A stretch of 19,591 bases of DNA from NCBI GenBank assembly GCA_036338695.1, contig JAYZBQ010000028.1, positions 1-19,591 of the forward strand. Direction: 5' to 3'. This stretch comes from Myxococcota bacterium. GTDB taxonomy: Bacteria; Myxococcota; UBA4151. Positions 1,049 to 19,590 of this stretch are shown here, one piece after another (positions within the stretch are counted from its first letter, which is position 1; each line of letters begins with the position of its first letter). A program made the translations under genes and the position numbers. The notes under the pieces were generated by a model that worked only from the letters and a program-made list of their open reading frames with translations, did no database searches and was not told where the DNA came from.

Positions 1049-1139
1049 TTCTCGAGCAGCCTGCACCTGAAGGTGCTTTGACGTGACCGTGCGGCTGGGT
1101 CAGACTGCGCTTCGGTTGACCTGACCGACGGAGTGAATC

Positions 1140-3416
1140 ATGCGCTGGTGCCTGCCCCTGTGCCTCTTTGTTGCCGCCGCTGGCTGTTCATCGCCTGATC
1201 CGGAAAGCCAGGCACGCTGCGGCGATGCGCGCCTTGGCGCAGGGGAGGAATGTGACGACGGCAACAGCGTCGATGACGACGCCTGCACCAACGCCTGTAC
1301 CCAGGCGGCGTGCGGCGACGGGATCCTGCGCACCGACCTCGCCGAGGGCGTCCTCGGCGCCGAAGGGTGTGATGACGGCAACGATTTTGACGGCGACGGC
1401 TGCTTGACCACGTGCGTGGTGGCAACCTGCGGTGATGGCGTTCTGCGCACGGACCTGAGCGTCGACGATGAGGGCTATGAAGCCTGTGATGATGGCAACG
1501 ACGAGGACTGGGATGGCTGCAACACCCGCTGCGAGGCCATCGGCTGCGGTGACGGCGTGGTTCAGCCTGAGATGGGCGAGGCCTGTGACGACGGCAACGA
1601 GATCGACACCGACGCATGCACCAACCGCTGCCGACCTGCAGGGTGCGGCGACGGCTCCGTCTGGGAGGGCCAGGAGGAGTGCGACGACGGCAACCGCGAC
1701 AACTTTGACGCCTGCCTCAACGCCTGCACCGTTGCGCGCTGCGGTGACGGCGCGGCGCGGATGGATCTGTCGGAGGGTGAGGCGGGTTATGAAGCCTGCG
1801 ACGATGGCAACAGCGACTCCGATGATGCCTGCTTGACCGACTGCAGCGCGGCGCGCTGCGGTGACGGGGTGTACCGACGCGACCTCAACCCTTCGCATCC
1901 CGACTTTGAGGAGTGCGATGATGGCAACGACTCCGACGATGATGAGTGCTCGAGCGAGTGCGTCTCGCTGGGCTGCGGCAACGGGCGCCTCAATGACGGG
2001 GAGGCTTGTGACGACGGCAACATTGAAGACGCCGACGCCTGCCGAAACGACTGCACGCTCGCAGCCTGCGGTGATGGGGTCCTCAGGCGCGACCTGGAGC
2101 GCGGCGAGGAGGGTTTTGAGGCGTGCGATGACGGCAACGTCGTGGACACCGACACCTGCACATCGCTCTGCCTGGCAGCGACCTGCGGCGACGGGTTTGT
2201 GCGCCAAGACCTCGCTGAGGACCACGAAGACTTCGAGGTCTGTGATGACGGCAACGCGCAGGACGATGACGCCTGCTTGGGCTGTCAGCCCGCTCGGTGT
2301 GGTGACGGCGTCGTGCGCACGGATCTGCAGGACGGCGAGGACGGCTTTGAGTCGTGCGATGACGGCAACGACGTCAACGATGACGCATGCCCTGACAGCT
2401 GCCTCTCGGCGCGTTGCGGCGACGGGATCCGGCGAGCTGACCTCGATGAGAACGCCCAAGGCTATGAGGCTTGTGATGACGGCAACGAGCTGCAGACGGA
2501 CGCCTGCTTGAACAACTGCGTGCTGGCGCGCTGCGGCGACGGCTTGCAGCGCCTGGATCTACAGCCCGGTCAGGACGGGTACGAAGCCTGCGATGACGGA
2601 AACCAAGTCCAGAGCGACGCCTGCCTGTCCAACTGTGCGGTCGCCGCGTGCGGTGACGGTCAGGTGCGCGCAGGGGTCGAAGCCTGCGACGACGGCAACC
2701 AGGTCGACACCGATCAATGCCGCAACAGCTGCGTCGAGGCGCGCTGCGGCGACGGTGTGGTCTACGCAGGGTTTGAGGGCTGCGATGACGGCAATCAGGT
2801 GCAAGACGACGGCTGCAACAACCTCTGCCGTTTAGGCTCATGTGGCAACGGTCAGGTCGATCAAGGCGAGCCCTGTGACGACGGCAACAACGACGACGAC
2901 GACGCCTGTCGCAACGCGTGCGCAGCGGCAGCCTGCGGCGACGGCGTAACCCGGGTAGACCTGCAAGAAGGTCAGGCGGGTTACGAGAGCTGCGACGATG
3001 GCAACTTGGTGGACGGTGACGGCTGCTCGGCAGCCTGCTTGAGCGAGCGCCCGCCCCTGAATCAAGATCTTGGCGCTGAGGGCAACGGGGTGGTGCCGAT
3101 TGCCTTCTGCGGCTTCGCACAAGGGCGGGCGGCGCCGGGCGCGCCGCTCGAGCGCGTCGGGATCTACAATTCGCGTCGCACGCCTCGCGAGCGGCACATG
3201 GGGCACGCCAACTGGGACAGCTTCTGCCGAGCGAACGGCTGGCGCGCCTCGAATTCAGGCTACGGTAACTGGAACCACGACTGCGCCCGCGTGATGACCT
3301 ACTGGTCGGATCGCAACGTCGGTACGGGCCGCGGGCCCCACCAGTCCAACAGCTACCCGCCCAACCGTCAGGCGACGAGTCACATCTACATGACCTGCAT
3401 TGGGGGTCAGGATTGA
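1140..3416 (+). CDS. Lipoprotein with 17 Cys-rich CDDGN repeats and a unique ~125-aa C-terminal domain
   Basis: GGAG at 1130-1133 before the ATG; lipobox signal MRWCLPLCLFVAAAG-C; 17 CG(D/N)x..ExCDDGNxxxxDxC units counted; Arg/Asn/Trp/Gly-rich tail from ~3039. Confidence 0.92.
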   Translation: MRWCLPLCLFVAAAGCSSPDPESQARCGDARLGAGEECDDGNSVDDDACTNACTQAACGDGILRTDLAEGVLGAEGCDDGNDFDGDGCLTTCVVATCGDGVLRTDLSVDDEGYEACDDGNDEDWDGCNTRCEAIGCGDGVVQPEMGEACDDGNEIDTDACTNRCRPAGCGDGSVWEGQEECDDGNRDNFDACLNACTVARCGDGAARMDLSEGEAGYEACDDGNSDSDDACLTDCSAARCGDGVYRRDLNPSHPDFEECDDGNDSDDDECSSECVSLGCGNGRLNDGEACDDGNIEDADACRNDCTLAACGDGVLRRDLERGEEGFEACDDGNVVDTDTCTSLCLAATCGDGFVRQDLAEDHEDFEVCDDGNAQDDDACLGCQPARCGDGVVRTDLQDGEDGFESCDDGNDVNDDACPDSCLSARCGDGIRRADLDENAQGYEACDDGNELQTDACLNNCVLARCGDGLQRLDLQPGQDGYEACDDGNQVQSDACLSNCAVAACGDGQVRAGVEACDDGNQVDTDQCRNSCVEARCGDGVVYAGFEGCDDGNQVQDDGCNNLCRLGSCGNGQVDQGEPCDDGNNDDDDACRNACAAAACGDGVTRVDLQEGQAGYESCDDGNLVDGDGCSAACLSERPPLNQDLGAEGNGVVPIAFCGFAQGRAAPGAPLERVGIYNSRRTPRERHMGHANWDSFCRANGWRASNSGYGNWNHDCARVMTYWSDRNVGTGRGPHQSNSYPPNRQATSHIYMTCIGGQD

Positions 3417-4516
3417 GGCTGCGACAGCTCGGGGTCCTCAGCGCGCTGAGCTGGGCAGCCCTCGGTTGTCAGCCACCGGTTGAGGCCGGCTGCGAGGGCG
3501 CCGAGTTCGTGGCGCTCGAGGGCGAAGGCGCCGTGGCGGTGCCGGCGGGCGTGCGGCGCTTTAACCGCTTCGGGATGAACGTTGAGATCTGGTACCCGGG
3601 TGTTCCAGGCAGTGAGGCGGGCAGGGAACCACACGTCTATGACCTGCGGCGCTACTTGCCGCCCGAGGAGGCGGCGAAGGTCAGCGATGCGCAGAACCCG
3701 TGGCAGCCATGCCCCTGCTATGACGGGCTCCCGCTCGACACCCGCCGGGGTCCTTACCCTGTGATCGTGTTCATCCACGGAACGGCGGGTTATGCAGCCC
3801 AGAGCGCACAGCTCACGGCGTATTGGGCGAGCCAAGGTTTTGTGGTGATCGCCATGGATCACCCGGGCATTTATCTGACCGACCTGCTGGCGCTGAACAT
3901 GGCGCCTCGGCAAGCTGACGATGTACGCGAGCTGCTCGCCGACCTGCGCGCCTTTCGAGGTGGCTTCGCCGAGCTTGAGGGCGCCGTCGACCTACAGCGC
4001 ATCGCGATCACGGGTCACAGCGCGGGGGGCTACGCGTCGGGCGAGCTCGGCGATGAGCAGGGGGTCCAGCTGTTGATGCCCATGGCGGCGGGCGGCACCT
4101 CGGCGGCGGGTCCCATGAGCCTTATTTTAGGGGCTGTCGACGACCAGGTCGTCCCCTACGCTGACGCTGAGTCCGGTTACGAACAGACGCCGGGTGAGAA
4201 GCTCTTGGTGGGGCTCAACAACGCAGGTCACCTTGCCTTTAGTGACCTGTGCGCCATGGGCAGCGACCAAGGCGGGTTGGTGGTCATTTTGCAAGAGACG
4301 GGGATCTCGATACCGGACGCAGCGGGTGATCTGGTCGAGCGTCTCGGCACCGACGGATGCGCTGAAGGTCAGATGAGCCCAGAGCGGGGCTGGGCGATCA
4401 CGCAAGCCGTCACCGGCAGCTACCTGAGCGCTCGGCTGCAGTGCCGCGGCGAGGAGATGTCGGCTGAAGCCATCGCCGCAGCCTTCGGAGACGATGTCAC
4501 CGTGCGCGCTCCGTAA
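3413..4516 (+). CDS. Lipoprotein alpha/beta-hydrolase (PAF-acetylhydrolase/chlorophyllase-like)
   Basis: TTG start overlaps the upstream TGA; lipobox AALG-C; PVIVFIHG, GFVVIAMDHPG, nucleophile GHSAG, Asp in GAVDDQVV, His in AGHLAFSD. Confidence 0.85.
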   Translation: MRLRQLGVLSALSWAALGCQPPVEAGCEGAEFVALEGEGAVAVPAGVRRFNRFGMNVEIWYPGVPGSEAGREPHVYDLRRYLPPEEAAKVSDAQNPWQPCPCYDGLPLDTRRGPYPVIVFIHGTAGYAAQSAQLTAYWASQGFVVIAMDHPGIYLTDLLALNMAPRQADDVRELLADLRAFRGGFAELEGAVDLQRIAITGHSAGGYASGELGDEQGVQLLMPMAAGGTSAAGPMSLILGAVDDQVVPYADAESGYEQTPGEKLLVGLNNAGHLAFSDLCAMGSDQGGLVVILQETGISIPDAAGDLVERLGTDGCAEGQMSPERGWAITQAVTGSYLSARLQCRGEEMSAEAIAAAFGDDVTVRAP

Positions 4517-5708
4517 ACCGGATCGGCAGAGTCTTGATCCCGGCGATAAAGTTGGAGCGCAGGCGGCGCACGTCGCCGGCTTGCTCGATCGATGTCATGC
4601 GCTCAGCCATCGCCTCAAAGAGGAGGCGGATCTCAAGCCGAGCCAGACTCGAGCCGAGGCAAAAGTGCTCGCCGACGCCAAAGGCGAGGTGCTCGTTGGG
4701 GCTGCGGGTGATGTCAAAGCGGAACGGGTCTTCAAAGCGCGCTTCGTCGCGGTTGGCGCTGGTATAAAACAGGGCGATCTTGTCGTTCTCTTTCATCTCG
4801 ACGCCATGGAAGTTCAGGTCCCGCGTGCAGGTGCGGCGCATGTAGATCACCGGCGTTGACCAGCGTAAAATTTCCTCCGTAGCGCTGCCAGCCAGGCTCG
4901 GGTCGTCAACGAGCCGTTGCCACTGGTCAGGGTGCTCGAGCATGGCGAGCAAACCGCTCGAGATGGCGTTGCGAGTGGTCTCGTTGCCGGCGACGCTGAG
5001 CAGCAAAAAGAAGGCGTTGAACTCGGCCTCAGTGATCGCCTCGCCGTCGACCTCGGCGTTGAGCAAGACGTGGATCAGATCATCTGCGCGGCGACCGCCG
5101 CGCCCCTCGACGAGCTCTTGGGCATACTGCCAGAGCTCCATCGCAGCGATCCGGGAGTCGTCGATCGAGGTTTGGACTTCTGGGTCGTCAAAGCCGATCA
5201 GGCGGTTCGTCCAGTCAAAGATGAGCTGAAAATCCGAGTCCGGGATGCCCACCAACCGACAGATCACCCGCAGCGGCAGCTCGGCGGCGACCTCGCGGAC
5301 AAAGTCGATCTCACCGAGCGGGAGGATGCGGTCCATGATCTCGTCGATGTCGTCGCGGATGCGCGTCTCCATCAGGCGCACCATCCGCGGGGTGAAACCC
5401 CGGCTCACCAGCTTACGGAATTTGGAGTGCTGCGGTGGGTCCATGTTGAGCATCAGCTGACGGATCGGGAACAGGTCTTCGTCGGCGTAATCATCGAGCG
5501 TGGTGCCGCCGCGCCAGGACGAGAAGTCTTGAGGGTTCTTGGACATCTCGGCGATGTGATCGGCTTTGGTGATCGCCCAGAACGGTCGCCCGTTCGGCAT
5601 CTCGTGGCGGAAGATCGGCTCCTGGTTGCGCAGCAGCGTGAGCTCGTCATGAAGGACGCGTTCAGCCCAGCTGTCCAGGTCGTAGAGATCGACGTCGGCA
5701 AGGTTCAT
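4497..5708 (-). CDS. Cytochrome P450, CYP125/CYP124/CYP142-like (steroid C26/C27 or methyl-branched lipid omega-oxidase family)
   Basis: MLNMDPPQH, RKLVSRGFTPR, I-helix VAGNETTRN, EEILR (ExxR), heme motif FGVGEHFCLG, terminal RLRSNFIAGIK; AAGGA upstream of the ATG. The subfamily is from remembered motif similarity, not a search. Confidence 0.93.
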   Translation of the reverse strand: MNLADVDLYDLDSWAERVLHDELTLLRNQEPIFRHEMPNGRPFWAITKADHIAEMSKNPQDFSSWRGGTTLDDYADEDLFPIRQLMLNMDPPQHSKFRKLVSRGFTPRMVRLMETRIRDDIDEIMDRILPLGEIDFVREVAAELPLRVICRLVGIPDSDFQLIFDWTNRLIGFDDPEVQTSIDDSRIAAMELWQYAQELVEGRGGRRADDLIHVLLNAEVDGEAITEAEFNAFFLLLSVAGNETTRNAISSGLLAMLEHPDQWQRLVDDPSLAGSATEEILRWSTPVIYMRRTCTRDLNFHGVEMKENDKIALFYTSANRDEARFEDPFRFDITRSPNEHLAFGVGEHFCLGSSLARLEIRLLFEAMAERMTSIEQAGDVRRLRSNFIAGIKTLPIRFTERAR

Positions 5709-5741: not shown

Positions 5742-5755
5742 TTAAACCGGTTCGA
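5742..5755. promoter_or_regulatory. KstR-like operator box (TnnAACnnGTTnnA)
   Basis: TTAAACCGGTTCGA = T-TA-AAC-CG-GTT-CG-A, ~34 bp upstream of the P450 ATG in the divergent intergenic region. Confidence 0.6.
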
Positions 5756-5798
5756 TTTGGGATCGACAAGGGCTGAGCGGGTGATTTTGCGAACCGAT

Positions 5799-5812
5799 TG
5801 AAACATGTTCTA
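5799..5812. promoter_or_regulatory. KstR-like operator box (TnnAACnnGTTnnA)
   Basis: TGAAACATGTTCTA inside the extended dyad CGATT...AATCG (5795-5816), ~22 bp upstream of the crotonase ATG. Confidence 0.7.
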
Positions 5813-5834
5813 ATCGCTCGGCGGGAGAGCGACC

Positions 5835-6722
5835 ATGTCCGATGAGGTTCTTTTTGAGTTAGACGGTCACGTGGCGGTGGTGACGCTGAACCGTCCTACC
5901 GCGCGTAACGCCCTCAATCTCGCTGCCCTTGCAGGGTTGGCCGACGCCTGGGAGCGGATCGAGCGAGACGCCACCGTCCGCGTCGCCATCCTCACCGGCG
6001 CCGGTGGCCACTTCTGCTCAGGCAGCGACCTCAAAGACATGCACGGCGACCACAGCGCCAACCCGGTCCACAAACGCTTCGTCCCCAAAGACCAGCTCGT
6101 CGAGGCGGCGCTGACCGCGCTGCGCGAGGGGCATGAGCGCCAGGCTCAAGAGCTCCTTGAAGAGCACCAAGGACGCGCCGATGAGGTGCCGCTGCACTGG
6201 CGCGCTTTTTTGCGCGACCGCCGGCTCGCAAAGCCGCTGATCGCAGCGGTCGAGGGCTACGCGCTCGGCGGCGGCACCGAGGTGCTCCAGGCGTGCGACC
6301 TGCGCGTCGCTGGGCGCTCGGCGCAGTTTGGGCTCACCGAGGTGAAGTGGGGGCTTTTCCCCTTGGGCGGCTCGACCGCTCGGTTGCCCAAGCAGATCCC
6401 GTACACGCGTGCCATGGAGCTGTTGCTCACAGGGGCTCGTATGAGCGCTGAGGAGGCCTACCACTGCGGCTTGATCGGGCGCGTGGTTGATGACGGCGGG
6501 GCGCTCGAGTCGGCGCGTGCTTGGGCCGATCAGATCGCCGCCAACGGTCCGTTCGCGGTCCAGAGCGTACTCGCAAGCGTGCGCGCCGCCGAGGGGCTCA
6601 GCGACGCTCAAGCGGTCGCTACCGTCGACGGTCACGGCAACCCGGTGCTCTACAGTCAAGACGCTCGCGAGGGTGCGCGTGCCTTTCGAGAGCGGCGAAC
6701 TCCCGAGTTCAAGGGCGAGTGA
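5835..6722 (+). CDS. Enoyl-CoA hydratase/crotonase family, EchA19-like
   Basis: LNRP.ARNAL, ILTGAGGHFCSGSDL, RRLAKPLIAAVEGYALGGGTE, FGLTEVKWGLFPLGGS..RL..QIPYT, IAANGP.AVQ, DAREG.RAF; both catalytic Glu present; GGGAGAG upstream of the ATG. Confidence 0.92.
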   Translation: MSDEVLFELDGHVAVVTLNRPTARNALNLAALAGLADAWERIERDATVRVAILTGAGGHFCSGSDLKDMHGDHSANPVHKRFVPKDQLVEAALTALREGHERQAQELLEEHQGRADEVPLHWRAFLRDRRLAKPLIAAVEGYALGGGTEVLQACDLRVAGRSAQFGLTEVKWGLFPLGGSTARLPKQIPYTRAMELLLTGARMSAEEAYHCGLIGRVVDDGGALESARAWADQIAANGPFAVQSVLASVRAAEGLSDAQAVATVDGHGNPVLYSQDAREGARAFRERRTPEFKGE

Positions 6723-6785
6723 GGCGATTTATCCCGTTGAGAACTCGGGTGCCTTCGGCTAGGCTCTCGCCTGAGGAAAACGCCC

Positions 6786-7574
6786 ATGATGATGCTCAGT
6801 GCCGTACTTGCGCTCGCCGCACCTGCGCCGGGTGACGCGCCCGACCTTGCGATGATGGACATGAAGGCGGTCCATGGCGTCGAGGATTCGCTCGCAGCTG
6901 TTCTCAACGAGAGCTTCCTGGTGGCGCTGAAAAACAGCGGCAAGTTAGGGAACGTGGTCGGCGGTTCGGACCTGCGCGCCATGCTCGACCTCGAGCAGCA
7001 AAAGCAGGCGCTCGGTTGCGGCGACGACGGCTGCCTCGCCGAGCTCGGGGGCGCGCTGGGTGTCCCGTATCTGTTCTACACCAGCTTAGCGAAGGTCGGC
7101 TCCAAGTACGTGATGCACTACAAGGTGATGGCGGTGGAGGAGGCTAAGGTGGTCGTGCGCGGCATGAAGACGGCCGCAAGCGATGATGCGCTGCTCGAGA
7201 TGCCGCAGATTTTGGTGACGGAGGCGATGGCCGGCATGTTCCAGCAAGCGCCGTCTGCTCCAGCCACCCAACCGGCGCCTCAGGCGACGGCTACGCCATC
7301 GAGCGCGCCGAGCGCTGCGGCGCCCGCTCAGCCAAGTCAGCCGATCAAGATGAGCCGCTGGCTTGGGGTCGGGCTGACGGTCGCTGGAGGCGGATTAGCC
7401 GCTGCGGGTTACAGCGGCTTTGCCAGCGCTCGTGACAGCTACGCGGCGCTCACCGAGCCGACCAGCGCCGACTACGCCAATTATGAGGCGGCGGCTGCGC
7501 CGGCGAATTCGATGTGGATTGGCGGATTGGGGCTGGCGGTGGTCGGCGCAGGATTGGCGGTGGTCGCACCATGA
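6786..7574 (+). CDS. Secreted/membrane hypothetical protein of the myxobacterial [15 protein letters not shown] type, with Pro/Ala linker and Gly-rich hydrophobic C-terminus
   Basis: GAGG upstream; N-terminal signal; [22 protein letters not shown] motif; QPAP-rich linker; two Gly-rich hydrophobic segments; stop overlaps the next ATG (ATGA). Confidence 0.8.
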
Positions 7575-10500
7575 GGACCTTAGCGACGTGGGTATGGATC
7601 GGGAGCCTGAGCGCATGCCTTGCGCCGAGCCCTTTGGATAACCCGGTGGTCAACGCAGAGCATCAAGCCGGCGGCGCCGCCGTGTGCACGCAAGACAGCG
7701 ACTGCGACCACACCATGGTGTGTTCGGCGGGCGTCTGCCTGGCGGCGGGCGGTGACCGCGCCGTATGCGGCAACGGCGTCGTCGATGAGGGCGAGGCCTG
7801 CGACGACGGCAACGCCGAGGACAACGACGCGTGCAGCAACGCCTGCGTGGTGGCGCGCTGCGGTGACGGAGTGGTGCGAACAGACCTTGCACCCGCCGAC
7901 AGTGAGTACGAGCAGTGCGATGACGGCAACCAAGACGACACCGACGCGTGCACCAACGCCTGCCAGGTCGCACGCTGCGGCGACGGGATCGTCCGAGCCG
8001 ACGCCGACGAGGGCGAATCTTGCGATGACGGCAACGAGATCAACACCGACGCGTGCACGAACGAATGTCAGGCTGCGCACTGCGGTGACGGGATCACCCG
8101 TGAAGACGTCGCCGAGGGCGCCGAGGGCTATGAGGCGTGCGACGACGGCAACAACGACGACGATGACGCCTGCTACGACTGTCAAAACGCACGGTGCGGC
8201 GATGGCGTGGCGCGAACGGACCTCTCGGGCGCTGATGAGGGCGCCGAGGCTTGCGATGACGGAAACGAGATCGAAACAGACGGCTGTCTGAGCAGCTGCG
8301 ACCTGGCACGCTGCGGTGATGGTCACACACAAGACGGGGTCGAGGACTGCGACGACGGCGACCAGGACGACACCGACGAGTGCACCAACGCGTGTGGGGG
8401 CGCACGCTGCGGCGACGCAATCACCCGGATGGACCTTGAGGAGGGTAATGAGTTCTTTGAGGCTTGCGACGACGGCAACCAAGTGCAGACCGACGACTGC
8501 CTAAACGACTGCACCGCGGCGTCGTGCGGCGACGGCCACCTCCAAGCAGGGGTTGAAGGCTGCGACGACGGCAACGTGGACCCTGGGGACGGCTGCGACG
8601 GGCTCTGCCGCTTGGAGTCGTGCGGTAACGGGCGAGTCGATGCGGGGGAGGAATGCGATGACGGCGACCAAGACAACACCGACGCGTGCATGAACGAATG
8701 TCAGGCTGCGCGCTGCGGCGACGGTGTTGAGCGTGAAGACCTCAATGACGGGGACGAAGGCTTTGAGTCATGTGATGATGGCAACGAGATCAACACAGAC
8801 GATTGCACGAATGAATGTCAGGACGCGCGCTGCGGCGATCGCTACGTTCAAGCGGGCGTTGAAGAGTGCGATGATGGAAATCAGATCGATCAAGATCAGT
8901 GTAGAGAAAATTGCCAAACAAATAGGCTGCCGACGCTCGCAGCGGTGACGATTAGTCCTTTATCGTTGACCAAAGGAGCTTCTGCTGCCTGTGCCCCGTC
9001 ATTGCCTGGAGCAATCGATCGGGAGGGCGATGACATCGTTTACGGCTACCAATGGTTCATTGGTGGGGACGAGATCTCAACAAACCGGACGATTATTGTG
9101 ACGCATAATCCGGGTGTATCACTGGTTTGCGCGGTCACTGCGAACGATTACGAATGTGAGCTTCGTGGTCGCTGCGGAACGCCGGTCCGATCAAATCCGG
9201 TGGTCATCGGACACAGATGCGGTGACTCGGTCGTCCAACAGGGCGTTGAAGAGTGCGACGATGGTAACGAGGACAATACCGACGCTTGCGTTAACTGCAG
9301 TAACGCTCGATGCGGCGATAGTCACGTTCATGACGGCGTGGAAGCCTGTGATGATGGCAACGACAACAACAATGACCAGTGTCGAAACGATTGCACGGCT
9401 TCTGCGGTTTGCGGCAACGGCCAAGTTGAACAGGGCGAGCAGTGCGATGACGGCGACCAGGACGACACGGACGCGTGCACCAACGCCTGTCAGGCTGCAC
9501 GCTGCGGGGACGGTATTGAGCGTGAGGACCTCCAAGACGGTCAGAACGGTTTCGAGGCTTGCGATGATGGGAACAACATCGATACCGACGCCTGTTTGAC
9601 GAACTGTCAGGACGCTCGGTGCGGTGATAATCGTCTTTGGCAGGGTGAAGAAGAATGCGATGATGGAAACACCGACAACGGTGATGGATGCGATCAGAAT
9701 TGCGATATCGAAGAGCCGGATTCAGCGCTGATCACAGCGGGTGATTTTCATACCTGTGTGGTGCGCGACCTAAACGAAGACGGCAATGGGCACATCTGGT
9801 GTTGGGGCGAGAACACGCACAAACAGCTCGCTATCAACAACAATAATATCCAATTCCGAGCCCCGGCGGAGCGGATCACGAGTCAAGAACAGGCTTGGGA
9901 GGCGATCGGTGCTGGTGCACGCTTTACACACGCATCGCATGGTGCGGTGGTTTATAGTTGGGGGTCATCCATGATATCCAATAACGGCTTGGGCTGGGGT
10001 GTAAATGAGGGTGTCACTCAGTGGCAACGGTCCGAATTTGGTGCGATGCCTCTGACTCAGAGGTCTTGGGGTGAAGAGGACGTCGTCGAAATTGCTGGCG
10101 GTCATGCTATGTCCGCTTTTCGTACCGACTCTGCTGTCTATGTGGTGGGCTGTTCAATTTTCAGAAATGATTCCAACAATCTCGCTTGTCGGCCGGGTTT
10201 GAAGTGGTCAACTGAAGGCCAAGTGAACCGCGCGGAATCAATTCAAATCAGCGTGGATGGAAACGATCAAAACTTTGCAGCGGTCGACATGATGATTGGC
10301 GACAATTATCTGTGTGCCAAGCAAAGAGATAACGCAGTGTATTGTCTGGGGTCGAACATACCTGCCGTTGCGTTGGGTCGGTATAATTTTGACGGTGGTG
10401 CAACGTGGTGGCGAGGTGAGATCGCTAGGGTTCAGCACCCCCAAAACAACAATGATGATGATTGGTTACAGGCAACCGTTGAGGGTTTGGCAGCAGGCGC

Positions 10501-11026
10501 GAAAGGGCTCAATTGTGTGAACACCAACAACCAAATTCAATGCATTGGATTCCATGCCGGTCAGGTGCAGAAGATGACCATACGTCGAGGGGATGGTAAT
10601 GCCCTAATCTTGAATCAACCCCTACGCGACTTAGCCGTAGCTGAGTCGGTGGGTTGTTTTGTGGATCATGGCGGTTGCGTGAAGTGCTTTGGGTCGAACC
10701 ACGAAGGTCAACGCGGCAACGGTCAAAGAGAGAACTGCGGACAAAACCAGTGCCATTTTGACCGTGCGACACCCGTCGAAGCGTTTTGTCGACAGAACGA
10801 TCCCCTCGGTGACGGAAACATCACCAACGTAGTTGTCGGTGCGACGCACACTTGCGCGGCGACGGCGAACGGCGAAGACGTCTGGTGCTGGGGCAAAACT
10901 GATAAGGGTCAAGCGGGTTCGCAAGCACAGGGTATTTCACACTGTCTGTGTCCCGTTCAGGTCTTGTTTTCAGACAATGAGAATGAGCCTCAACCGACTT
11001 GTCCTATGGGTTGTAGCTCCAATTAG
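7571..11026 (+). CDS. Large lipoprotein (~1151 aa): 16 Cys-rich repeats, an internal Ig-like domain and a C-terminal RCC1/BLIP-II-like beta-propeller
   Basis: Start reassigned to ATG 7571 (coupled to the upstream TGA; lipobox [16 protein letters not shown]). 11 + 5 CDDG(N/D) units flank a beta-rich domain (~8921-9215). RCC1-type motifs [53 protein letters not shown]. Confidence 0.9.
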
Positions 11027-13191
11027 CTTCGGTTCCTTCGCCTCAAGCCGATCAGCCCGAGCAGCCAGAGCGCGTCGAGCCCGCCCGCGCTTGAGCAGCC
11101 GCAGCCAGCGCCCGGTGTGATCGGGGCGGGACAGCTCGGGTCGGTGCCCTCGAGCGTTGCGCAGGTCACCGGCGCGCAATCGCTCGAGCAGGATGCCAGC
11201 GCAGCGTTCGTGTTTTGCTCGCCATCATCGCAGGACTCATAGCCTGCCTCACCCTCGCTCAGGTCGTCGCGCAAGACACCGTCGCCGCAGGTCGCCAGCA
11301 CGCAGCCGTTTCGGCAGGCGTCTGTCTCGACCTCATTGGCGTCGTCGCAGCCCTCAAAGCCCTCTTCGCCAGCGCTTAGGTCCGTGCGGGTGAAGCCGTC
11401 GCCGCACTGAGCGGGGGTGCAGTCGGTTAGGCAGGCGTCGTCGTTCGCCTCGTTGCCATCATCGCAGCCCTCGAGGCCTGCGCGCAGATAGCCGTCGCCG
11501 CAGACAGCCGTGACACACCCTGAGACGCAGCCGTCGCTGTCCGAGCTGTTGCCGTCGTCGCACGCCTCCACGCCGGCTTGAACGTAGCCGTCACCGCAGC
11601 GCGCCGGCTGGCAGTCGGCGCAGGCGTCGGTGGTGTCCTCGTTGCCGTCATCGCAGCGCTCAAAGCCGTCATCACCATCTGGGATGTCTGTCCGCACGAC
11701 GCCGTCGCCGCAGCGCGCCGGCTGGCAGACGTTGGTGCAGGCGTCGTCGTCGGCTTCGTTGCCGTCGTCGCAGCCCTCGACGCCCAAGAACACCACCCCA
11801 TCCCCGCAGCGCGCAGGGGTGCACGCCCCGGTGCAGGCGTCGTTCTCCACAGCGTTGCCGTCGTCACATGCCTCGTCCTCGCCATGCACGAAGCCATCGC
11901 CGCAAGCCGCCGGGACGCAGCCCTCGACGCAGTCGTCACCGTTGTCTTGGTTGCCGTCATCGCAGGCCTCAAAACCCTCGGCGCCCTCTTCAAGGTCGGT
12001 TCGCACCACCCCGTCGCCGCAGACCGCCAGCAGGCAACCGGCTCGGCAGGCGTCGGTGTCGACGTCGTTGCCGTCGTCACAGGCCTCAAAGCCCTCCTCC
12101 TCAGGGGCTCGATCGGTGCGCCGGATCCCGTCGCCGCAGCGCGCTTGGACGCAGGAGGCGGTGCAGCCGTCGGTGTCGAGCTCGTTGCCGTCGTCACAGG
12201 CCTCAAAGCCTTCGTCGCCTGGGGCGAGGTCGCCTCGCTGGATGCCGTCGCCGCATGCGGCCTGCGCGCAGCTGCTCGTGCAGGCGTCTTCATCGACCTG
12301 GTTGCCGTCATCGCAAGCCTCAAAGCCGTCCTGACCGGCTTGTAGGTCGTCGCGGACGACGCCGTCGCCGCAGGCGGCGAGGCTGCAGTCGTTCTTGCAG
12401 CCGTCGGTGTCGACCTCGTTGCCGTCGTCGCAGGCTTCGTTGGTGTCGACGTGCTCGTTGCCGCAGGCGCGCTCAAGGCACGAGTTGGCACAGGCGTCGT
12501 CGTTGTCCCGGTTGCCGTCGTCGCAGTCTTCGTCCTCGTCGACGATCCCGTTGCCGCAGTTGGAGCTGTTCCCCCAGATCAAGGTGTCGCTCATTACGGT
12601 CGAGCCGCCTTGGCTGATCGTCGCGCCCGCCATGGCGTCGTCGTTGCAATAGAAGAACAGGGCGATCGGCTCGTCGGTCTCAAGACCGACAAAGCGGGAG
12701 TCGGAGCGAGGGGTCCAGCGCACCTGGCCGAGCAGGCGCCCTTCGGCGTTGAAGGCGACGAGGTATTGGGTGCCGTTGCGCCCGGCGGTCAGCCCGATCT
12801 GATTGACGGGGCGGTCAAAGGTACCCATCGGACAAAACCAGATGGTGTTTCCTGCGGCGACACCGCCAGCGCTCGTGTTGGGGAAATAGTTGCCCGGGTT
12901 CGGGCGGCACATCGGGCGCGCAAGGTTGCCTCGGACCAGCTGGTTTTGACCGTGATAGAGCCCGGGGCGGACCCGCTGGATGTCGCCGTTATGGAGCGTC
13001 AGACCGTCGGCAGCGTAGGTGTCGTTGCGCTGACCGTTGCCGCAGTAGCTCGTCCAGTCGGCGGTCCCGAGCGGTCGCCCGTTGAGGATGTCGTCTGCGT
13101 GATTCAGGGCGCGCACCTCGCCTTGCGCGGTCACGGTACCCGCCGCGGCGGGCAGGGCGAAGAGGGTCAAAGACAGCGCCAGAGATCGCAT
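11023..13191 (-). CDS. MYXO-CTERM-anchored surface protein (~722 aa): N-terminal beta-sandwich-like domain plus 13 Cys-rich repeats
   Basis: Start reassigned to ATG 13191 (AAGGAG 5 nt upstream; signal [17 protein letters not shown]). 13 CDD(G/A)(N/E) units. C-terminus [29 protein letters not shown] = GCGC + hydrophobic helix + Arg cluster. Confidence 0.9.
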
Positions 13192-13220
13192 AGGGGCTCC
13201 TTGCTTGGAGCCCAAGCCTA
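13191..13220 (-). promoter_or_regulatory. RBS-occluding hairpin with a mutually exclusive alternative stem
   Basis: The mRNA reads UAGGCUUGGGCUCCAAGCAAGGAGCCCCUAUG: GGGCUCC/GGAGCCC covers the SD, and GCUUGG/CCAAGC is an alternative stem. Confidence 0.4.
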
Positions 13221-13240
13221 ACGAAAAATCGGCGCGCTTC

Positions 13241-14233
13241 CTAGGCGTCGAGCCCTTGCTCGAGCCGCTCATACTGCGAGTCGGTGTAGAACTGTTTGAC
13301 CCACTTTCGGAAGATCCCGATGGGGCCGTCACCGTCGCAGAGCACCGGAGGCGAGATGTAGATCTTGTTCTCCCAGATCGGGATGTCTTGCTCGAGCTCG
13401 CGGATCACTGCGGCGCGAAATTTGGACGAGACCAGCTCGAGCATCGCCGGGTCATCGATCATCGAGCCGCCTAAGGTCTTGCGCAGCATAAAGTTGAAGC
13501 GCACGTGCACACGCTCGCCGTCGATGGGGGTCGATGAGGAGACCAGACAGGTCTCAGCGATCCCAAAAAACCGGGTCTGCGTGTAGCCAAAGCCGTAGAG
13601 GTCCGAGGTGATTTTGCCTTCGACCGGCATGCCCTTGTAGGTCATGGTCGCTGGGCTCTTCATGTGCAGGATATGCCCCTCGCGCTCGGCCTCGGTCGGC
13701 GGGATGTTTTGGGTGCCGTGCAGGTAGTGGAAATGCGCTGAGTCCACGGCGTTCTCCGCCATCTCCTGGTTGTGCGTACGGATGATCCAGTCCTTGCGGG
13801 TGTAGTCGGTCCACTCGGGGTGGCCGTACTCGGGCGCCTCGGGCGGGTCCCAGTGCGGCGCCTCGCCGTCGGGGTGGTACCAAGCCAGCACCAGCCCGCT
13901 GCGCTCGACCACGTGCCAAGCCCTCGTGTCCGCTCTTTTGGGCTGCCGGGTGGCGTAGGGCACGTCGGTGCAAGCGCCCGTGCAATCAAATTTCCAGGCA
14001 TGGAACGGGCAGACGACCGAGTTGCCCTCCACGCGGCCGCCGTGCCCGAGGTGTGCGCCGAGGTGTGGACAATAGGCGTCGAGCAGACCTAGCTTTTGGT
14101 CCTCGCCGCGAAAGAGCACCAGGTGTTGTCCAAAATAATGAAGCGGGACGACGGCGCCGACGTCTAGGTCTTCACTGTAGGCGATCTGAAACCAACCGAC
14201 GGGAAACGAGGGCATGGGGAAGCGACGCGTCAT
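13241..14233 (-). CDS. Rieske non-heme iron oxygenase, KshA (3-ketosteroid 9-alpha-hydroxylase)/Neverland-like
   Basis: Start reassigned to ATG 14233 (GGAG 5 nt upstream; ~330 aa). Rieske CPHLG...CPFH; mononuclear Fe motif ENAVDSAHFHYLH; C-terminal QDIPIWENK..PPVLCDGDGPI..FRKWVKQFY. Confidence 0.92.
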   Translation of the reverse strand: MTRRFPMPSFPVGWFQIAYSEDLDVGAVVPLHYFGQHLVLFRGEDQKLGLLDAYCPHLGAHLGHGGRVEGNSVVCPFHAWKFDCTGACTDVPYATRQPKRADTRAWHVVERSGLVLAWYHPDGEAPHWDPPEAPEYGHPEWTDYTRKDWIIRTHNQEMAENAVDSAHFHYLHGTQNIPPTEAEREGHILHMKSPATMTYKGMPVEGKITSDLYGFGYTQTRFFGIAETCLVSSSTPIDGERVHVRFNFMLRKTLGGSMIDDPAMLELVSSKFRAAVIRELEQDIPIWENKIYISPPVLCDGDGPIGIFRKWVKQFYTDSQYERLEQGLDA

Positions 14234-14882
14234 AACATCTCCGTGTGCGCCCGCCTCGGACGCCCGCTCGGCGAAGACTAGAACATGTTCTAGTTGGGGG
14301 AGGCAAGGGCGCAAGGGCGGCGCCTGGGCGCTGCTGCTCGTTTTGCTCGCCTCGGTCTCGCCGGCGGCTGCGAAGACCTCTTCTGAGGTCATTGCGGCGT
14401 CGAGCCAGCCGGTCGTGCGCGTGACCCCGGTCAAGGGGTCGTCGGCGCCCAAGTTGACCATCGAAGTGCTCGTCGATGCGCCGATCGAGAAGGTCGCTCG
14501 TGTGGTGGGCGCCTGCAGCGACTACGTTGGCGTCATCCCTCGCGTCCAGAAGGTGATCCTGCACAAGCGGGGCGTGCCGCATCACGTCTGCGAGCTCTTC
14601 CTCGACATGCCGTTTCCCTTCGCAGATGTCCGCTCGACCATCGGCTACACGGGCAGCGTGACCGCCGATGAGGTGGTGATGCGTTACCAGCAGGTCCGCG
14701 GCGACTATCGTGTGCACGACGGCATGTGGCGACTGCGGGCGCAAGGTCGCCAAACGCACATGCGCTACAGCCTGCACATCGACTTAGGGCAGCCGCTGCC
14801 TAAGTGGATCATCAATATCTTCACAAAGGACGCGCTGCGGCAGACGGTCAAAGAGGTCGCCCGCCGAGCGCAGGCGCTCTAG
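14214..14882 (+). CDS. Secreted SRPBCC/START-fold (polyketide cyclase-like) lipid-binding protein; start uncertain
   Basis: Signal-like WALLLVLLASVSPAAA; VLVDAPIEKV..VV...DY...IP.V; GD....DGMWRL; T.MRY...ID.G.PLPKWIIN. The start is problematic (see findings). Confidence 0.72.
   Translation: MGKRRVITSPCAPASDARSAKTRTCSSWGRQGRKGGAWALLLVLLASVSPAAAKTSSEVIAASSQPVVRVTPVKGSSAPKLTIEVLVDAPIEKVARVVGACSDYVGVIPRVQKVILHKRGVPHHVCELFLDMPFPFADVRSTIGYTGSVTADEVVMRYQQVRGDYRVHDGMWRLRAQGRQTHMRYSLHIDLGQPLPKWIINIFTKDALRQTVKEVARRAQAL
14277..14294. promoter_or_regulatory. Perfect 18-bp palindrome containing a KstR-like operator box
   Basis: ACTAGAACATGTTCTAGT is its own reverse complement; core 14279-14292 = T-AG-AAC-AT-GTT-CT-A; ~45 bp upstream of the Rieske ATG. 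Confidence 0.75.
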
Positions 14883-15802
14883 ACCTCGAAGGGGGTCAGC
14901 ATGGAGCGCATGAACTCGATCCGGCCGCGCACGCCGTCGCCATAGAGCTTCTGGACTTTGAGCGTCAGCTCGCCCGGGCGGCCGCTGCCCACGTCGCGGC
15001 GGTCAACCTGTCGCACCGGCGTGATCTCGGCGGCGGTGCCGGTCATAAAGACCTCGTCGGCCACGTACAAAGCGTCGCGCCCAAACAGGGTCTCATCGAC
15101 GCTGACGCCTAAGTGGTCGAGGATCTCGATCGCAGTGCGGCGCGTGATGCCAGCGAGGATGTTGGTCACCGAGGGTGTTTTGACCACGCCGTTTTTGATC
15201 GCAAAAATGTTCTCGCCGGTGCCCTCGGCGACCAGCCCGTGCGCGTCGAGCATGATCGCCTCATCGAAGCCGTTATCGTTCGCCTCGTAGCGCGCCAGGA
15301 TCGAATTCACGTAGTGACCCACGACTTTGGCGCGCTGCAGCGTGGAGCCGACGGCGTGGCGCGCAAAGCTCGAGGTGCACGCGCTGATGCCGTTCTCCAT
15401 CCCCTCGGCGCCGAGGTACGCACCCCACTTCCACACGGCGATCGCCACGTGGACGGCGTTGCTGCGGGCGCCCAAGCCCATGGCGCCCGAGCCAAGGAAC
15501 ACGAGCGGCCGGATGTAGGCTTCGGTCATCCCGTTCCGGCTCAGCGTCTCAAGGCAAGCCTGCCGCACCTCCTCTTTGGTGTGCGGGATGGTGATGTGGC
15601 ACATCTTGGCTGAGTCGTAGAGTCGATCGAGGTGCTCATCGAGTCGAAACACCGCTCCGGTGCCGTCGTCTTGCGTGTACGAGCGGATCCCCTCGAACAG
15701 CCCGAGCCCGTAGTGGAGGGTGTGGGAGAGGACATGGATGTTGGCTTCGTCAAAGGGGACAAAGGCGCCATCCATCCAGATTTCTTTCGACCGTACTGAC
15801 AC
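14879..15802 (-). CDS. ilvE: Branched-chain amino acid aminotransferase (class IV PLP)
   Basis: IWMDG, LHYGLGLFEGIR, FRLDEH..RL..SA, YIRP, AKVVGHYVNS (PLP Lys), EGTGENIF, ILAGITR, ADEVFMTGTAAEITPV; GGAGG precedes GTG 15802. Confidence 0.95.
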   Translation of the reverse strand: MSVRSKEIWMDGAFVPFDEANIHVLSHTLHYGLGLFEGIRSYTQDDGTGAVFRLDEHLDRLYDSAKMCHITIPHTKEEVRQACLETLSRNGMTEAYIRPLVFLGSGAMGLGARSNAVHVAIAVWKWGAYLGAEGMENGISACTSSFARHAVGSTLQRAKVVGHYVNSILARYEANDNGFDEAIMLDAHGLVAEGTGENIFAIKNGVVKTPSVTNILAGITRRTAIEILDHLGVSVDETLFGRDALYVADEVFMTGTAAEITPVRQVDRRDVGSGRPGELTLKVQKLYGDGVRGRIEFMRSMLTPFEV

Positions 15803-15918
15803 AAAACCTCCGAGCAGCGTCGCACCCTCCGTCAAAGGGTCGATCTCGGCAAGCCCGAAGACGCGTTATAGTCCATAATAAGGTCAGGGCTCGACCTGAC
15901 GACGGAGATGAAAACGAG

Positions 15919-17904
15919 ATGATGAGGCGCGCAGGACTGCTGATGTTGATCGCAGCGTGTTCGACTGAACCGGAGCTGGAACCCTTGGACTTTGCAGACG
16001 GCTGCCAGCCGTTGTTTGCGGGCGAGGAGTGCTTGCTCCCTTATCCCAGCGACTACTTTTTGGTCGATGATCCCAGCCAGCCGTCGGGCAAACGCGTTGC
16101 GATCTCGGGGGCGGCGGAGGTCGTGAGCGACCAGCTGCAGAACGTCGACTCGGGCGTCTTTCGGCCTCAGGATGGCTTCTCGCGCAACCCGACTATTTTG
16201 TTTTCGTTGCTCGAGGAGACGGACGGCGTGGGGCTCGTGCGGCTCGACGATGACTACGAGACCAGCCGTGACCCTTCGACCAGCGCCACCGTGCTGATCG
16301 AGGCGGGCACTGGTCGACGCATCGCCCACTTCGTCGACATCGACCCGATCCCGGCCGAAGGGACGCCGCGCGGGCTGATGATCCGCCCGCTCGAAGAGCT
16401 GCTGCCGCAGACGCGTTACGTCGTCGGCGTGCACGGCCTTGCGGGCACCCAAGGTGTGATCGCTGCGCCGGAGGGGTTTCGGCGACTGCGCGACCAGCAG
16501 AGCGGCCAAGATCCGCTGCTCGAGGCGCTGCAGGCGCGCTACGATGAGACGATTTTCGCGCCGCTCGAGCGCGCGGGGCTCGAGCGCGGCGTCTTGCAGC
16601 TCGCGTGGGATTTCACGACGGCGAGCGATGAGAGCGTCACCGGCGACATGATGCGTGTGCGGGAGCTGACGCTCGAGTGGCTGCAGACGCAGACGCCTGC
16701 GGTGCGCGTGACCGAAGTGCGTGAGTTCAACAACGAGTCACGCGGGATCTGGCGCTACGTCTACGGCAAGATCACCGGGCCCCGCTTTGTCGAGTCCAAT
16801 GAGCTCGGCGCTTGGCTGCACAAGCCGCAAGGCCAGGTGGAGCAAAATGGCGAGTTTGAGTTCTCGTTTATCGTGGCGGTGCCCAATGCGCTCAAGACCC
16901 ACTTTGAGCCAGGGCGTGCGATCGGTTACGGGCACGGCTTCTTCGGCTCGTACCGCGAGGTCGAGGCGGGATCGGTGGCTGGGATCGCCAACCATCTCAA
17001 GACGATCGTGATCGGGATCCCGTGGACTGGGATGACCGAGGTCGACGCGGCGGTGCTCGTGGGCGATATGGTCGACGAGCCCGGTCAGATGATCCGCTTT
17101 GGCGAGCGAGTCCACCAGGCGCAGGCGAACTGGTTGGTCACGACGCAGGTGGTCAAGAATCAACTCTTTGGGCTGCCCGAGCTGCGGCGGCCGACAGAGG
17201 AGGGCGCTGACGGCGTGGTGGTCAACGAGCAAGGTGAATCCAACGCCGGACAAGCCCTCTACGACCCGAGCTGGATTGGCTACATTGGGATCAGTCAGGG
17301 GCATATTCTTGGCGGCACGACCGCTGCCCTGAACCCCGATTTTGATCGCGTCGTGCTCAACGTCGGCGGCTGCGCCTTTACCCATATGATGAGCCGCTCC
17401 TCGAACTTTAGTTACTACCTGATGCTGATCGATACGCTGACGCTCGCAGACCCCTTTGAGCGGCAGAAGATGCTGGCGATGATGCAGCCGATTTTTGATC
17501 GCTTTGACCCCGCGACCTACGCCAAGTACGTCCTGCGCGAAAAGCTCCCAGGCAGCCCAGAAGACCGCCGGGTTCTGATGCAGACGGGCTTTGCGGACCC
17601 ACAGGTGCCGGACTTCACAGCGCAGCTTCACGCCCGCTTGCTCGGGATCCCGGTGCTCGAGCCGAGCCCCGAGGTCATGTGGGGACTTGAGACCACCACG
17701 TCGCCAGCGCCTGGCAGCGCCTTCACCTACTTTAAGTATGACGTCGACGCTGCGTTTCGTCAGGTCGCCCAGCCCACCGATGAGGGCAACGAGGTGCACG
17801 AAGGCATCCGGCGGCTCGACGTCACCAAGCAACAACTCGACGCCTTCTTGCGCCCGGGTGGGGTGATCGAACACTTCTGCGAGGGGCCGTGTGATCCGGA
17901 CTGA
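15919..17904 (+). CDS. Large lipoprotein alpha/beta-hydrolase (extracellular lipase/esterase-like) with N-terminal beta domain
   Basis: Lipobox LIAA-C; CLLPYPSDYF, DGFS, IRP...L.P.TRY.V; YGHGFFGS; nucleophile GISQG; Asp in GFADPQV; His in NEVHEG. Confidence 0.85.
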   Translation: MMRRAGLLMLIAACSTEPELEPLDFADGCQPLFAGEECLLPYPSDYFLVDDPSQPSGKRVAISGAAEVVSDQLQNVDSGVFRPQDGFSRNPTILFSLLEETDGVGLVRLDDDYETSRDPSTSATVLIEAGTGRRIAHFVDIDPIPAEGTPRGLMIRPLEELLPQTRYVVGVHGLAGTQGVIAAPEGFRRLRDQQSGQDPLLEALQARYDETIFAPLERAGLERGVLQLAWDFTTASDESVTGDMMRVRELTLEWLQTQTPAVRVTEVREFNNESRGIWRYVYGKITGPRFVESNELGAWLHKPQGQVEQNGEFEFSFIVAVPNALKTHFEPGRAIGYGHGFFGSYREVEAGSVAGIANHLKTIVIGIPWTGMTEVDAAVLVGDMVDEPGQMIRFGERVHQAQANWLVTTQVVKNQLFGLPELRRPTEEGADGVVVNEQGESNAGQALYDPSWIGYIGISQGHILGGTTAALNPDFDRVVLNVGGCAFTHMMSRSSNFSYYLMLIDTLTLADPFERQKMLAMMQPIFDRFDPATYAKYVLREKLPGSPEDRRVLMQTGFADPQVPDFTAQLHARLLGIPVLEPSPEVMWGLETTTSPAPGSAFTYFKYDVDAAFRQVAQPTDEGNEVHEGIRRLDVTKQQLDAFLRPGGVIEHFCEGPCDPD

Positions 17905-18913: not shown

Positions 18914-19590
18914 CGAAATCGGTCGGGGCTTAGCCAGTTGACGTCGTGCGCTGGACGCTCCCCGACGACCTGCGCTGCGAGCGCCTCGCCGAGCGCCGGG
19001 ACCATCTTAAAGCCATGTCCGCTCAAGCCGGCTCCGACGTACAGGTGGTGGAACCCTTCGACCGCTCCGAGCATCGGATGCTCATCGGGCGTGAGCGTGT
19101 ACATGCAGGCTGTGTGGTCTCGAGGCGCTGACGTGTCGACGCTGGCGAAGCGGCGGCTCAACAAGTCGCTGACGCGCGCCCGGTCGTCGGCGTTGACTCG
19201 GCGATCGAGCGCAAGCGGCGTAGAGCAGTCTTGCCCGCCCGAGTGTTCGGCGACCTTAAAGCCGTGCTCATCAAGACTCGGGAAGCCATAAAAGACACCG
19301 TCAGGCTCCTCAAAGAGCCAGACCGGAAACCCTGCGGTTCGGCTGAGCCCCGCCGGCGCCCCAAACCAGAAGAGCGACTTTCGCTTGACCGTCAGGAGTC
19401 CGCTCAAATGCGTGGGCAAGAGCTGGCACGCCCAGGCGCCCGGGCACAGCACCAAGCGCTCTGCGAAGACATCCCCTCGATCGGTGACGACGCGCCAGCG
19501 GTCTCGCTCGTGGCTGTAGCCGTGAACGCTTACGCCGGTGCGTAAGTCGGCGCCGAGTCGCTCAGCTCGACTCGCCCACGCGCGCACGCA
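18910..19590 (-). CDS. solA: N-methyl-L-tryptophan oxidase / monomeric sarcosine oxidase family flavoprotein; 5' end outside the window
   Basis: LVLCPGAW, FYGFP, FKVAEH, ACMYTLTPDEH (covalent-FAD Cys region), GLSGHGFKMVPALGEALA, terminal LSPDRF. Confidence 0.85.
   Translation of the reverse strand, partial: CVRAWASRAERLGADLRTGVSVHGYSHERDRWRVVTDRGDVFAERLVLCPGAWACQLLPTHLSGLLTVKRKSLFWFGAPAGLSRTAGFPVWLFEEPDGVFYGFPSLDEHGFKVAEHSGGQDCSTPLALDRRVNADDRARVSDLLSRRFASVDTSAPRDHTACMYTLTPDEHPMLGAVEGFHHLYVGAGLSGHGFKMVPALGEALAAQVVGERPAHDVNWLSPDRFR

Follow-up and report, generated by a model that had tools for sequence, protein, structure and literature searches.

The stretch of DNA analysed here (the window hereafter) comprises 19,591 nucleotides from a Myxococcota bacterium (contig JAYZBQ010000028.1, our C28, of assembly GCA_036338695.1) and carries three short boxes in front of genes for a cytochrome P450, a crotonase and a Rieske oxygenase. 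These boxes are likely to be operators of a KstR-family TetR repressor whose gene lies on another contig of this genome, C13; the repressor would control the whole sterol pathway, C/D-ring degradation included. A sequence-only reading of the window had proposed a KstR-like sterol regulon with conserved operators in a non-actinobacterial host. Genome comparisons support this proposal through the presence of such a repressor, boxes at steroid genes, their conservation before orthologues and a genome that is not actinobacterial. The part concerning boxes at sterol genes stood; the system does not, however, simply reproduce that of Actinobacteria, as it appears to cover the C/D-ring genes too.

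Predicted operator boxes in the window and in the genome

The motif TnnAACnnGTTnnA occurs exactly three times in the window, against 0.09 matches expected by chance, and none of 200 shuffles reached three, in agreement with the three exact matches and the figure of under 0.1 chance hits given by the sequence-only reading. The matches read TTAAACCGGTTCGA (5742-5755), TGAAACATGTTCTA (5799-5812) and TAGAACATGTTCTA (14279-14292). The first two share the 126-bp gap between the divergent P450 and crotonase genes, and the third lies 45 bp from the Rieske gene, whose start at 14233 is backed by a GGAG and an ATG that are conserved in three genus-mates. With distances of 33 and 22 bp to the P450 start (5708) and the crotonase start (5835), all three fall within the 20-50 bp announced beforehand. 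The 18-bp palindrome and the stretch common to two boxes were also found as described: positions 14277-14294 form a perfect palindrome and AACATGTTCTA is present in two of the boxes.

The boxes are not equivalent. That at 5799 is unchanged in four genomes except for one central base, and the 14-bp core of the palindromic operator is identical to the box upstream of Nocardia kstR. Box 5742 scores poorly on the genome's own matrix (Table 1); of the three genus-mates, G001 and G002 have a full box at the aligned place whereas G003 has lost it, and we therefore consider it a weak second site. In run X2, a related strain is represented by one contig of low depth, in which the last base of the weak box (5755) is changed and the strong box is not; the change may be an error. 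On the promoter side, a -35-like TTG begins 12 bp upstream of box 5799 on the crotonase strand, another TTG 14 bp upstream of box 5742 on the P450 strand, and a conserved TTGCCT 14 bp upstream of the palindromic operator.

The genome carrying the window (3.36 Mb, 99 contigs, 93.6% complete, 0.98% contamination) holds 26 matches to the loose motif versus 13.3 expected. The motif alone is unspecific at this scale, several permuted control patterns yielding similar counts. Yet boxes do concentrate at steroid and lipid genes, a point on which the sequence-only reading depended: 14 matches are inside genes and 12 between genes, in the approximately 5% of the DNA that is intergenic (gene calls are from our own script; the site at 14279 is intergenic after correction of an over-long start), and strict sites stand at sterol units. 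Ten of these 12 fit the strict pattern T(A/G)(A/G)AAC(A/G)(C/T)GTT(C/T)(C/T)A. When a matrix is trained on the ten, a single additional site exceeds 18 bits; it precedes a second KshA gene, on contig C32. Ten column-permuted control matrices yield 0-3 sites. Pattern and matrix were built from this genome's own sites and its counts are circular; the C32 site and the other genomes are out of sample. Altogether, about ten boxed promoters serve sterol side-chain, A/B-ring and C/D-ring genes (Table 1). Names such as ltp3/4, fadD19, ipdABC and fadE26/27 are assigned from the best matches to the Nocardia and Tsukamurella clusters and from the mycobacterial gene order.

Of 111 distinct flanks, 43 have a TTG that begins 13-14 bp upstream of the box, compared with 10 when the position is mirrored. 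The operator widens to 18 bp through two flanking bases, A(-2) and T(+15). With a 17-bp spacer, the -10 element would land on the right end of the box. Overlap of the KstR operator with the -10 region is described in Kendall 2007 (PMC1995591), where the KstR-bound sites before Rv3516, Rv3545c, Rv3570c and kstR, and the predicted site before Rv3526, have the same form.

A KstR-like repressor and its co-occurrence with the box

The search for a KstR orthologue led to one of the eight TetR genes of the genome, on contig C13, whose nearest characterised relative by sequence and by fold is KstR and whose own promoter contains a predicted operator (Table 1). KstR is its best PDB match (residues 8-191, E 1e-15), the Pfam family PF17925 is above cut-off, and the NCBIfam KstR model (NF033703) is the best family for this protein as for 72 of 72 homologues. 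Of the Foldseek matches listed for its AlphaFold model (pLDDT 93.8), 11 of the top 12 are chains of KstR and the twelfth is a TetR of Rhodococcus (TM 0.81-0.86 for these 12); other TetRs follow at a clear distance, the next one listed standing at E 1e-4. Overall identity to actinobacterial KstR is about 27-30%. The recognition-helix residues A41-G43-T44-L45-Y46 are invariant in the 72 homologues and common to actinobacterial KstR.

Repressor and box travel together. Using a repressor profile at E 1e-25 (at most 10 candidates scored per genome), 8 of 301 genomes of the phylum matched; all eight contain 7-16 strict boxes, whereas the remaining 293 have 0-4. Among species representatives, 274 relatives were found, and in the best 80 of these a box lies within 300 bp upstream of kstR in 55, compared with 0/80 in both in-gene and reversed-pattern controls. 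These 80 are titled Myxococcota, Deltaproteobacteria, Polyangiales, Bradymonadia, Kofleriaceae, several Spirochaetales, Rickettsiales and others, the odd labels being unconfirmed record titles; none is titled actinobacterial. The closest are L043 (69%, titled Candidatus Hydrogenedens sp.) and L044 (63%, titled Myxococcota bacterium). In 35 of 50 repressor-bearing genomes searched whole, 5-38 strict boxes were found, and the reversed control never exceeded 4.

The boxes of the window are themselves conserved upstream of orthologues, another point on which the sequence-only reading depended: they precede the P450 in 22/25 loci, the Rieske gene in 15/30 (30 of 52 matches) and the crotonase in 4/4, with 0 in controls. 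Moreover, kstR is within 1.5 kb of the Rieske gene in 13 of the same 30 loci, and 25 of 34 genomes gave a match for HsaC.

The palindrome might be bound by another factor or be a mere promoter part, the KstR-like gene being a bystander. The right half of the box does lie where a -10 element is expected, and genomes devoid of the repressor still have up to four strict matches. But box counts split cleanly with repressor presence in the 301 genomes, boxes precede kstR itself, and a promoter element is expected to be neither symmetric nor limited to these genes. We hold this explanation to be very improbable.

Control of the C/D-ring genes and extent of the pathway

In Actinobacteria, C/D-ring genes are controlled by a second repressor, KstR2, via AnCAAGnnCTTGnT, according to Kendall 2010 (PMC3068626). 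The targets described there (see also PDB 4W97), fadD3, echA20, ipdA/B/C, echA13, fadE, fadA6 and ipdF, have their equivalents here, whereas the C/D-ring (HIP) promoter carries a KstR box instead of AnCAAGnnCTTGnT. Across 31 echA20 loci (our genome and 30 of 37 matches from 45 genomes), 23 have an exact KstR box no more than 200 bp from echA20, and none has a KstR2 box even when one mismatch is allowed; in the eight loci without a box, echA20 is downstream of a same-strand gene and the promoter lies outside the locus viewed. Actinobacterial references show the opposite (KstR box 0/6, KstR2 box 3/6), and proteobacterial ones have neither (0/4 and 0/4). The C/D-ring genes are thus likely to belong to the KstR regulon in these genomes, contrary to Actinobacteria.

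Alternatively, KstR could run the upper pathway while the HIP genes are also under a diverged KstR2-like regulator, the KstR box being an added layer. Non-actinobacterial KstR proteins are only about 30% identical to Nocardia KstR, and the matches of 27-35% that Nocardia KstR2 has in other genomes could include a diverged KstR2 (the best near-full-length one across 46 genomes reaching 35%, E 2e-25, in G331); the KstR2 pattern is insensitive, recovering half of the actinobacterial echA20 promoters, and our genome is incomplete. On the other hand, Nocardia KstR2 has no match in this genome at E 1e-9, and none of its eight TetR genes is on the HIP contig C78. The fadD3-echA20 gap is just 73 bp and accommodates a KstR box with a TTG on each side, and KstR2 boxes are absent from the 31 loci. 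Control by two regulators therefore seems unlikely to us, though by no means negligible.

The pathway predicted to be under this single repressor appears to be of the 9,10-seco type: KstD, KshA, HsaA, HsaC, HsaD and the HIP enzymes are encoded, as are hsaE/F/G. KstD, HsaA, HsaC and HsaD score under the actinobacterial equivalog cut-offs; FadD3, PRK07938, PRK08290, PRK07801, PRK07831 and PRK07798 are above curated cut-offs. The Gram-negative host and the A/B-ring and HIP enzymes resemble the proteobacterial 9,10-seco pathway of Comamonas, Pseudomonas and sphingomonads (PMC4810484, PMC8399759). With the mycobacterial KstR regulon (PDB 5CW8, 5CXI, 5UA2, 3MNL; PMC1995591), the system shares the sub-consensus of the 14-bp operator, the fold, the recognition helix and, as predicted here, autoregulation, the -10 position and targets that are counterparts of cyp125, echA19, fadD19, ltp3/4, fadE26/27, kshA and hsaA. 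It differs by its diderm host, by a distant repressor scoring below the family cut-off, by a Ser in place of Trp in the predicted pocket in this genus and by the apparent inclusion of C/D-ring genes.

Several observations weigh against a KstR regulon for complete sterol degradation. The repressor scores 82.5 bits on NF033703, far below the cut-off of 280, and in its predicted ligand pocket residue 159 is Ser, a position held by Trp in mycobacterial KstR and in 60 of the 72 homologues. It keeps Arg153; most homologues keep the Trp and not the Arg. Both residues belong to the ligand pocket of mycobacterial KstR, where the Trp binds the ligand. Fifteen of the 50 repressor-bearing genomes searched whole have only 0-4 strict boxes, and the genomes behind the orthologue counts were hand-picked among repressor-bearing ones, mostly box-rich and mutually related, so that kin are not independent. 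In G005 (93% complete), fadD3/echA20 and a KstR box at the HIP promoter (locus L153) are present with no match for kstR, P450, Rieske gene or hsaC; this box is possibly a relict operator after gene loss, or the result of an assembly gap. In our genome, no box was found upstream of kstD, the ipdE2-ipdF block or a fadD17-like gene, and at 93.6% completeness an HsaB-type flavin reductase, a KshB-sized reductase and close orthologues of Ltp2, ChsH1, ChsH2, FadE34 and FadA5 were not found. The HsaB-type Flavin_Reduct family is missing from all four genomes of genus g1 (G000-G003, ours being G000, where hsaA is nevertheless present), and occurs beside kstR in G004. In Sphingobium Chol11, steroids are degraded with neither KshB nor HsaB (PMC8399759).

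These gaps could mean that the regulon is real but serves, in this genus, partial sterol trimming or another lipid (methyl-branched or terpenoid), with a different inducer. Besides the missing hsaB, kshB and ltp2/chsH and the Trp-to-Ser change, the P450 of the window scores slightly higher on CYP124 (332 bits) than on extant CYP125 (313), and boxes stand at genes that are not known from the mycobacterial regulon (the PAE-family esterase, the acyltransferase/MpaB pair and the second P450). However, hsaA, hsaC, hsaD, hsaE/F/G, kstD, kshA and the HIP set all occur in this genome, several of them above curated cut-offs, and the same P450 reaches 475 bits on CYP125MRCA. We leave such a substrate shift only a rather small chance.

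We propose that the C13 repressor would keep the sterol breakdown genes off until a steroid acyl-CoA intermediate frees the operators. The dimer would sit between the -35-like TTG and the -10 position and repress sterically by blocking RNA polymerase. External sterol would be imported and oxidised at C26 by the P450, the FadD19-like ligase would add CoA, and the resulting thioester would lift repression. In this way a single repressor may open all stages at once, from the side chain through the A/B rings to the C/D rings, a task that is divided between KstR and KstR2 in Actinobacteria. Since the squalene cyclase family had no match in this genome, the substrate is probably external, and a regulon for the synthesis of the cell's own sterols was rejected on the same ground.

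Some boxed genes do not belong to the textbook regulon. One encodes an esterase-like lipoprotein of the PAE family that carries DUF2817, two others an acyltransferase and, next to it, an MpaB/Lcp-domain protein, and a further one the second P450, for which no PDB match was obtained at 1e-45. These genes are candidates for sterol-ester release, storage or modification. A loose box, TTGAACATGTTGAA, under the matrix threshold, is located at C18:26245 just before a 689-aa protein without Pfam match. In the stretch C78:13836-20464 (locus L005 and beyond), the HIP operon is closed by an F420-dependent LLM oxidoreductase (TIGR03559 above cut-off). The genes that follow resemble cofD, cofC, cofH and cofG and would place F420 synthesis beside a steroid cluster in a non-actinobacterium. 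In family f24, both kstR and the Rieske gene occur in G065, G095 and G100 (86-92% complete), together with 12-16 boxes per genome, with no echA20 match at E 1e-50; these genomes are possibly from upper-pathway-only degraders, or their assemblies have gaps.

Window genes, host and origin

Table 1. Predicted operators, window genes and boxed units (positions without prefix are those of the window)
Feature	Position	Strand	Remarks
Alpha/beta-hydrolase lipoprotein	3413-4516		converges on P450
CYP125-like cytochrome P450, predicted sterol C26 oxidase	4497..5708	-	best PDB match CYP125MRCA
Weak degenerate second operator (predicted)	5742..5755	.	<9 bits on genome's own matrix; 33 bp to P450
Strong KstR-type operator (predicted)	5799..5812	.	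25.1 bits on genome matrix; 22 bp to crotonase, 90 bp to divergent P450
EchA19-like enoyl-CoA hydratase (crotonase)	5835..6722	+	NF051848 EchA19 329.5 bits (cut-off 400); PRK07799 324 (cut-off 316)
KshA-family Rieske oxygenase	13241..14233	-	Rieske and KshA_C domains
Perfect palindromic operator (predicted)	14277..14294, core 14279-14292	.	28.1 bits; 45 bp to Rieske gene
Small gene, weak polyketide-cyclase/START-like match	14415..14882	+	PF03364 22.9 bits, below cut-off
ilvE	14879-15835		above family cut-off
Lipoprotein-like genes	15919-17904 and 17891-18913		no family matches
FAD oxidase, cut	18910-19587
KstR-like TetR repressor gene	C13:23932-24510		one of eight TetR genes
Operator in the repressor's own promoter (predicted)	C13:24537		26 bp upstream
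Boxed unit: kstR and short-chain dehydrogenase/reductase
Boxed unit: amidohydrolase-hsaA-hsaC-hsaD-hsaE			hsaG/F downstream
Boxed unit: SCP2, aldehyde dehydrogenase, ChsH2-type OB protein, two thiolase-domain genes, FadD19-like ligase, FadE26/27-like pair, ferredoxin
Boxed unit: thiolase, FadB/J, PRK07121 flavoprotein
Boxed unit: kshA	C32
Boxed unit: fadD3, echA20-ipdA-ipdB-ipdC-echA13-fadE-fadE-fadA6	C78		fadD3 divergent
Boxed unit: PAE-family esterase	L001:10099-12374
Boxed unit: SCP2, acyltransferase and MpaB-domain gene	L006:9674-11498		SCP2 divergent; position of the acyltransferase/MpaB locus
Boxed unit: second P450 and nitronate-monooxygenase-like gene	L006:15606-18050 (C98)		position of the second P450 locus

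The sequence-only reading had assigned the three window genes to the cyp125, echA19 and kshA families. The Rieske gene is indeed of the KshA family, but the boxed paralogue on C32 is the closer KshA (226 versus 171 bits against solved KshA); the window protein is 43% identical to sphingomonad Rieske proteins, versus 33-34% to actinobacterial ones, a further likeness to sphingomonads. Up to three KshA-family Rieske matches, one of them 41% identical to that of the window, occur in a 62-kb plasmid record of Planktothrix agardhii (NZ_LR882940.1). The crotonase is 47-48% identical to genes of the Nocardia and Tsukamurella clusters; relative to the EchA19 model it has an insertion of about 35-40 residues, in two stretches, and genus-mate crotonases match it over the full length. 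The P450 is the best match in this genome of the P450s of both clusters, and one 178-base contig from RNA run X1 (6% of words present) matches its gene exactly, though it may be DNA and reveals no start site. Its score on the reconstructed ancestor CYP125MRCA is far above those on extant structures, of which CYP124 gives the maximum and CYP142 reaches 242-248 bits. This natural enzyme may have evolved slowly and so have stayed close to the ancestor.

The small gene at 14415..14882, divergent from the Rieske gene and 122 bp from the palindromic operator, is a candidate regulon member at most. Four large Cys/Asp-rich repeat proteins (2-3416, 7514-11026, 11023-13332) are also encoded in the window; TIGR02232/DUF4215 was confirmed for three, and one has an RCC1-like C-terminus. 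The GCGC... tail of protein 11023-13332 resembles a MYXO-CTERM/GlyGly sorting signal. The TIGR02232 repeat genes are interleaved with the steroid genes.

Judged from marker families, the host is a diderm, non-actinobacterial bacterium of Myxococcota type. RpoB (1393 aa) scores 1430-1626 bits on chains of 1340-1383 residues, the proteobacterial group, and about 1190-1220 on chains of 1134-1181 residues, the actinobacterial group. In a plasmid collection, its identity to the RpoB of alpha-, beta- and gammaproteobacteria is only 54-56% (best 55-56%, with the alpha and gamma classes), the best 30 of 68 matches including no delta-lineage RpoB. LpxC is present, WhiB was not found in the genome, and MYXO-CTERM has four matches above cut-off, compared with none in 14 control genomes. 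Codon use of the steroid genes is that of the genome (codon adaptation index 0.691 versus 0.683 +/- 0.044; third-position GC 0.775 versus 0.776), and the window lies within the genome's tetranucleotide range (rank 34 of 42). The doubt about contig taxonomy and chimerism raised with the sequence-only reading is answered by these data: the genome is not actinobacterial and there is no sign of chimerism.

Could the steroid contigs nonetheless come from a contaminating actinobacterium, or have been acquired recently from an actinomycete? Their enzymes are 40-64% identical to Nocardia and Tsukamurella proteins, and EchA20 groups with actinobacterial sequences, actinobacterial EchA20 proteins falling among delta sequences in quick trees. 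Yet approximately unbiased tests do not reject a single delta clade (p 0.065 for all 31 sequences, 0.66 for 24), three genus-mates hold the same genes at 73-91%, and the interleaved repeat genes, the codon use and the low contamination already contradict this scenario. Moreover, quick trees (38 rows hand-picked among the repressor relatives for KstR; 4-8 actinobacterial references per tree) group 39 non-actinobacterial KstRs (support 94) as sister to 4 actinobacterial ones (93), and 26 non-actinobacterial P450s (96), whose place among actinobacterial P450s these trees do not settle. Recent transfer is thus unlikely, and we find this explanation as a whole scarcely credible.

More speculatively, and with less than even chances, KstR-controlled aerobic sterol degradation may be old and widespread in uncultured Myxococcota-related lineages. 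Their one-repressor regulon would then be ancestral and KstR2 something that Actinobacteria added later; these lineages could even be the source of the actinobacterial pathway. CYP125 is called actinobacterial in origin in PMC12100521, and CYP125MRCA is its reconstructed ancestor. As to known degraders, two surveys (PMC4810484, PMC5790920) assign aerobic steroid degradation to Actinobacteria and Proteobacteria; the passages covered name no delta- or myxobacterial degraders, 'Deltaproteobacteria' being absent from the former, 'delta' from the latter and 'myxo' from both, and supplements could list some. Our literature search, which covered neither subscription papers nor supplements, found no paper on a KstR regulon in Myxococcota or myxobacteria. 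A KstR system in a Myxococcota-type host, with a single predicted repressor extending to the C/D ring, is likely to be new.

The operator has stayed near-identical across phyla while the repressors have diverged to some 30% identity, and it provides an inexpensive way of recognising sterol degraders from their genomes. It suggests that bacteria of Myxococcota type which live as predators or feed on particles recycle sterols and have been overlooked in this role. The predicted control by KstR where KstR2 would be expected shows how the two-tier control of mycobacteria could have evolved. If sterol degradation is indeed an old trait there, Myxococcota-related lineages would constitute a third major group of sterol degraders.

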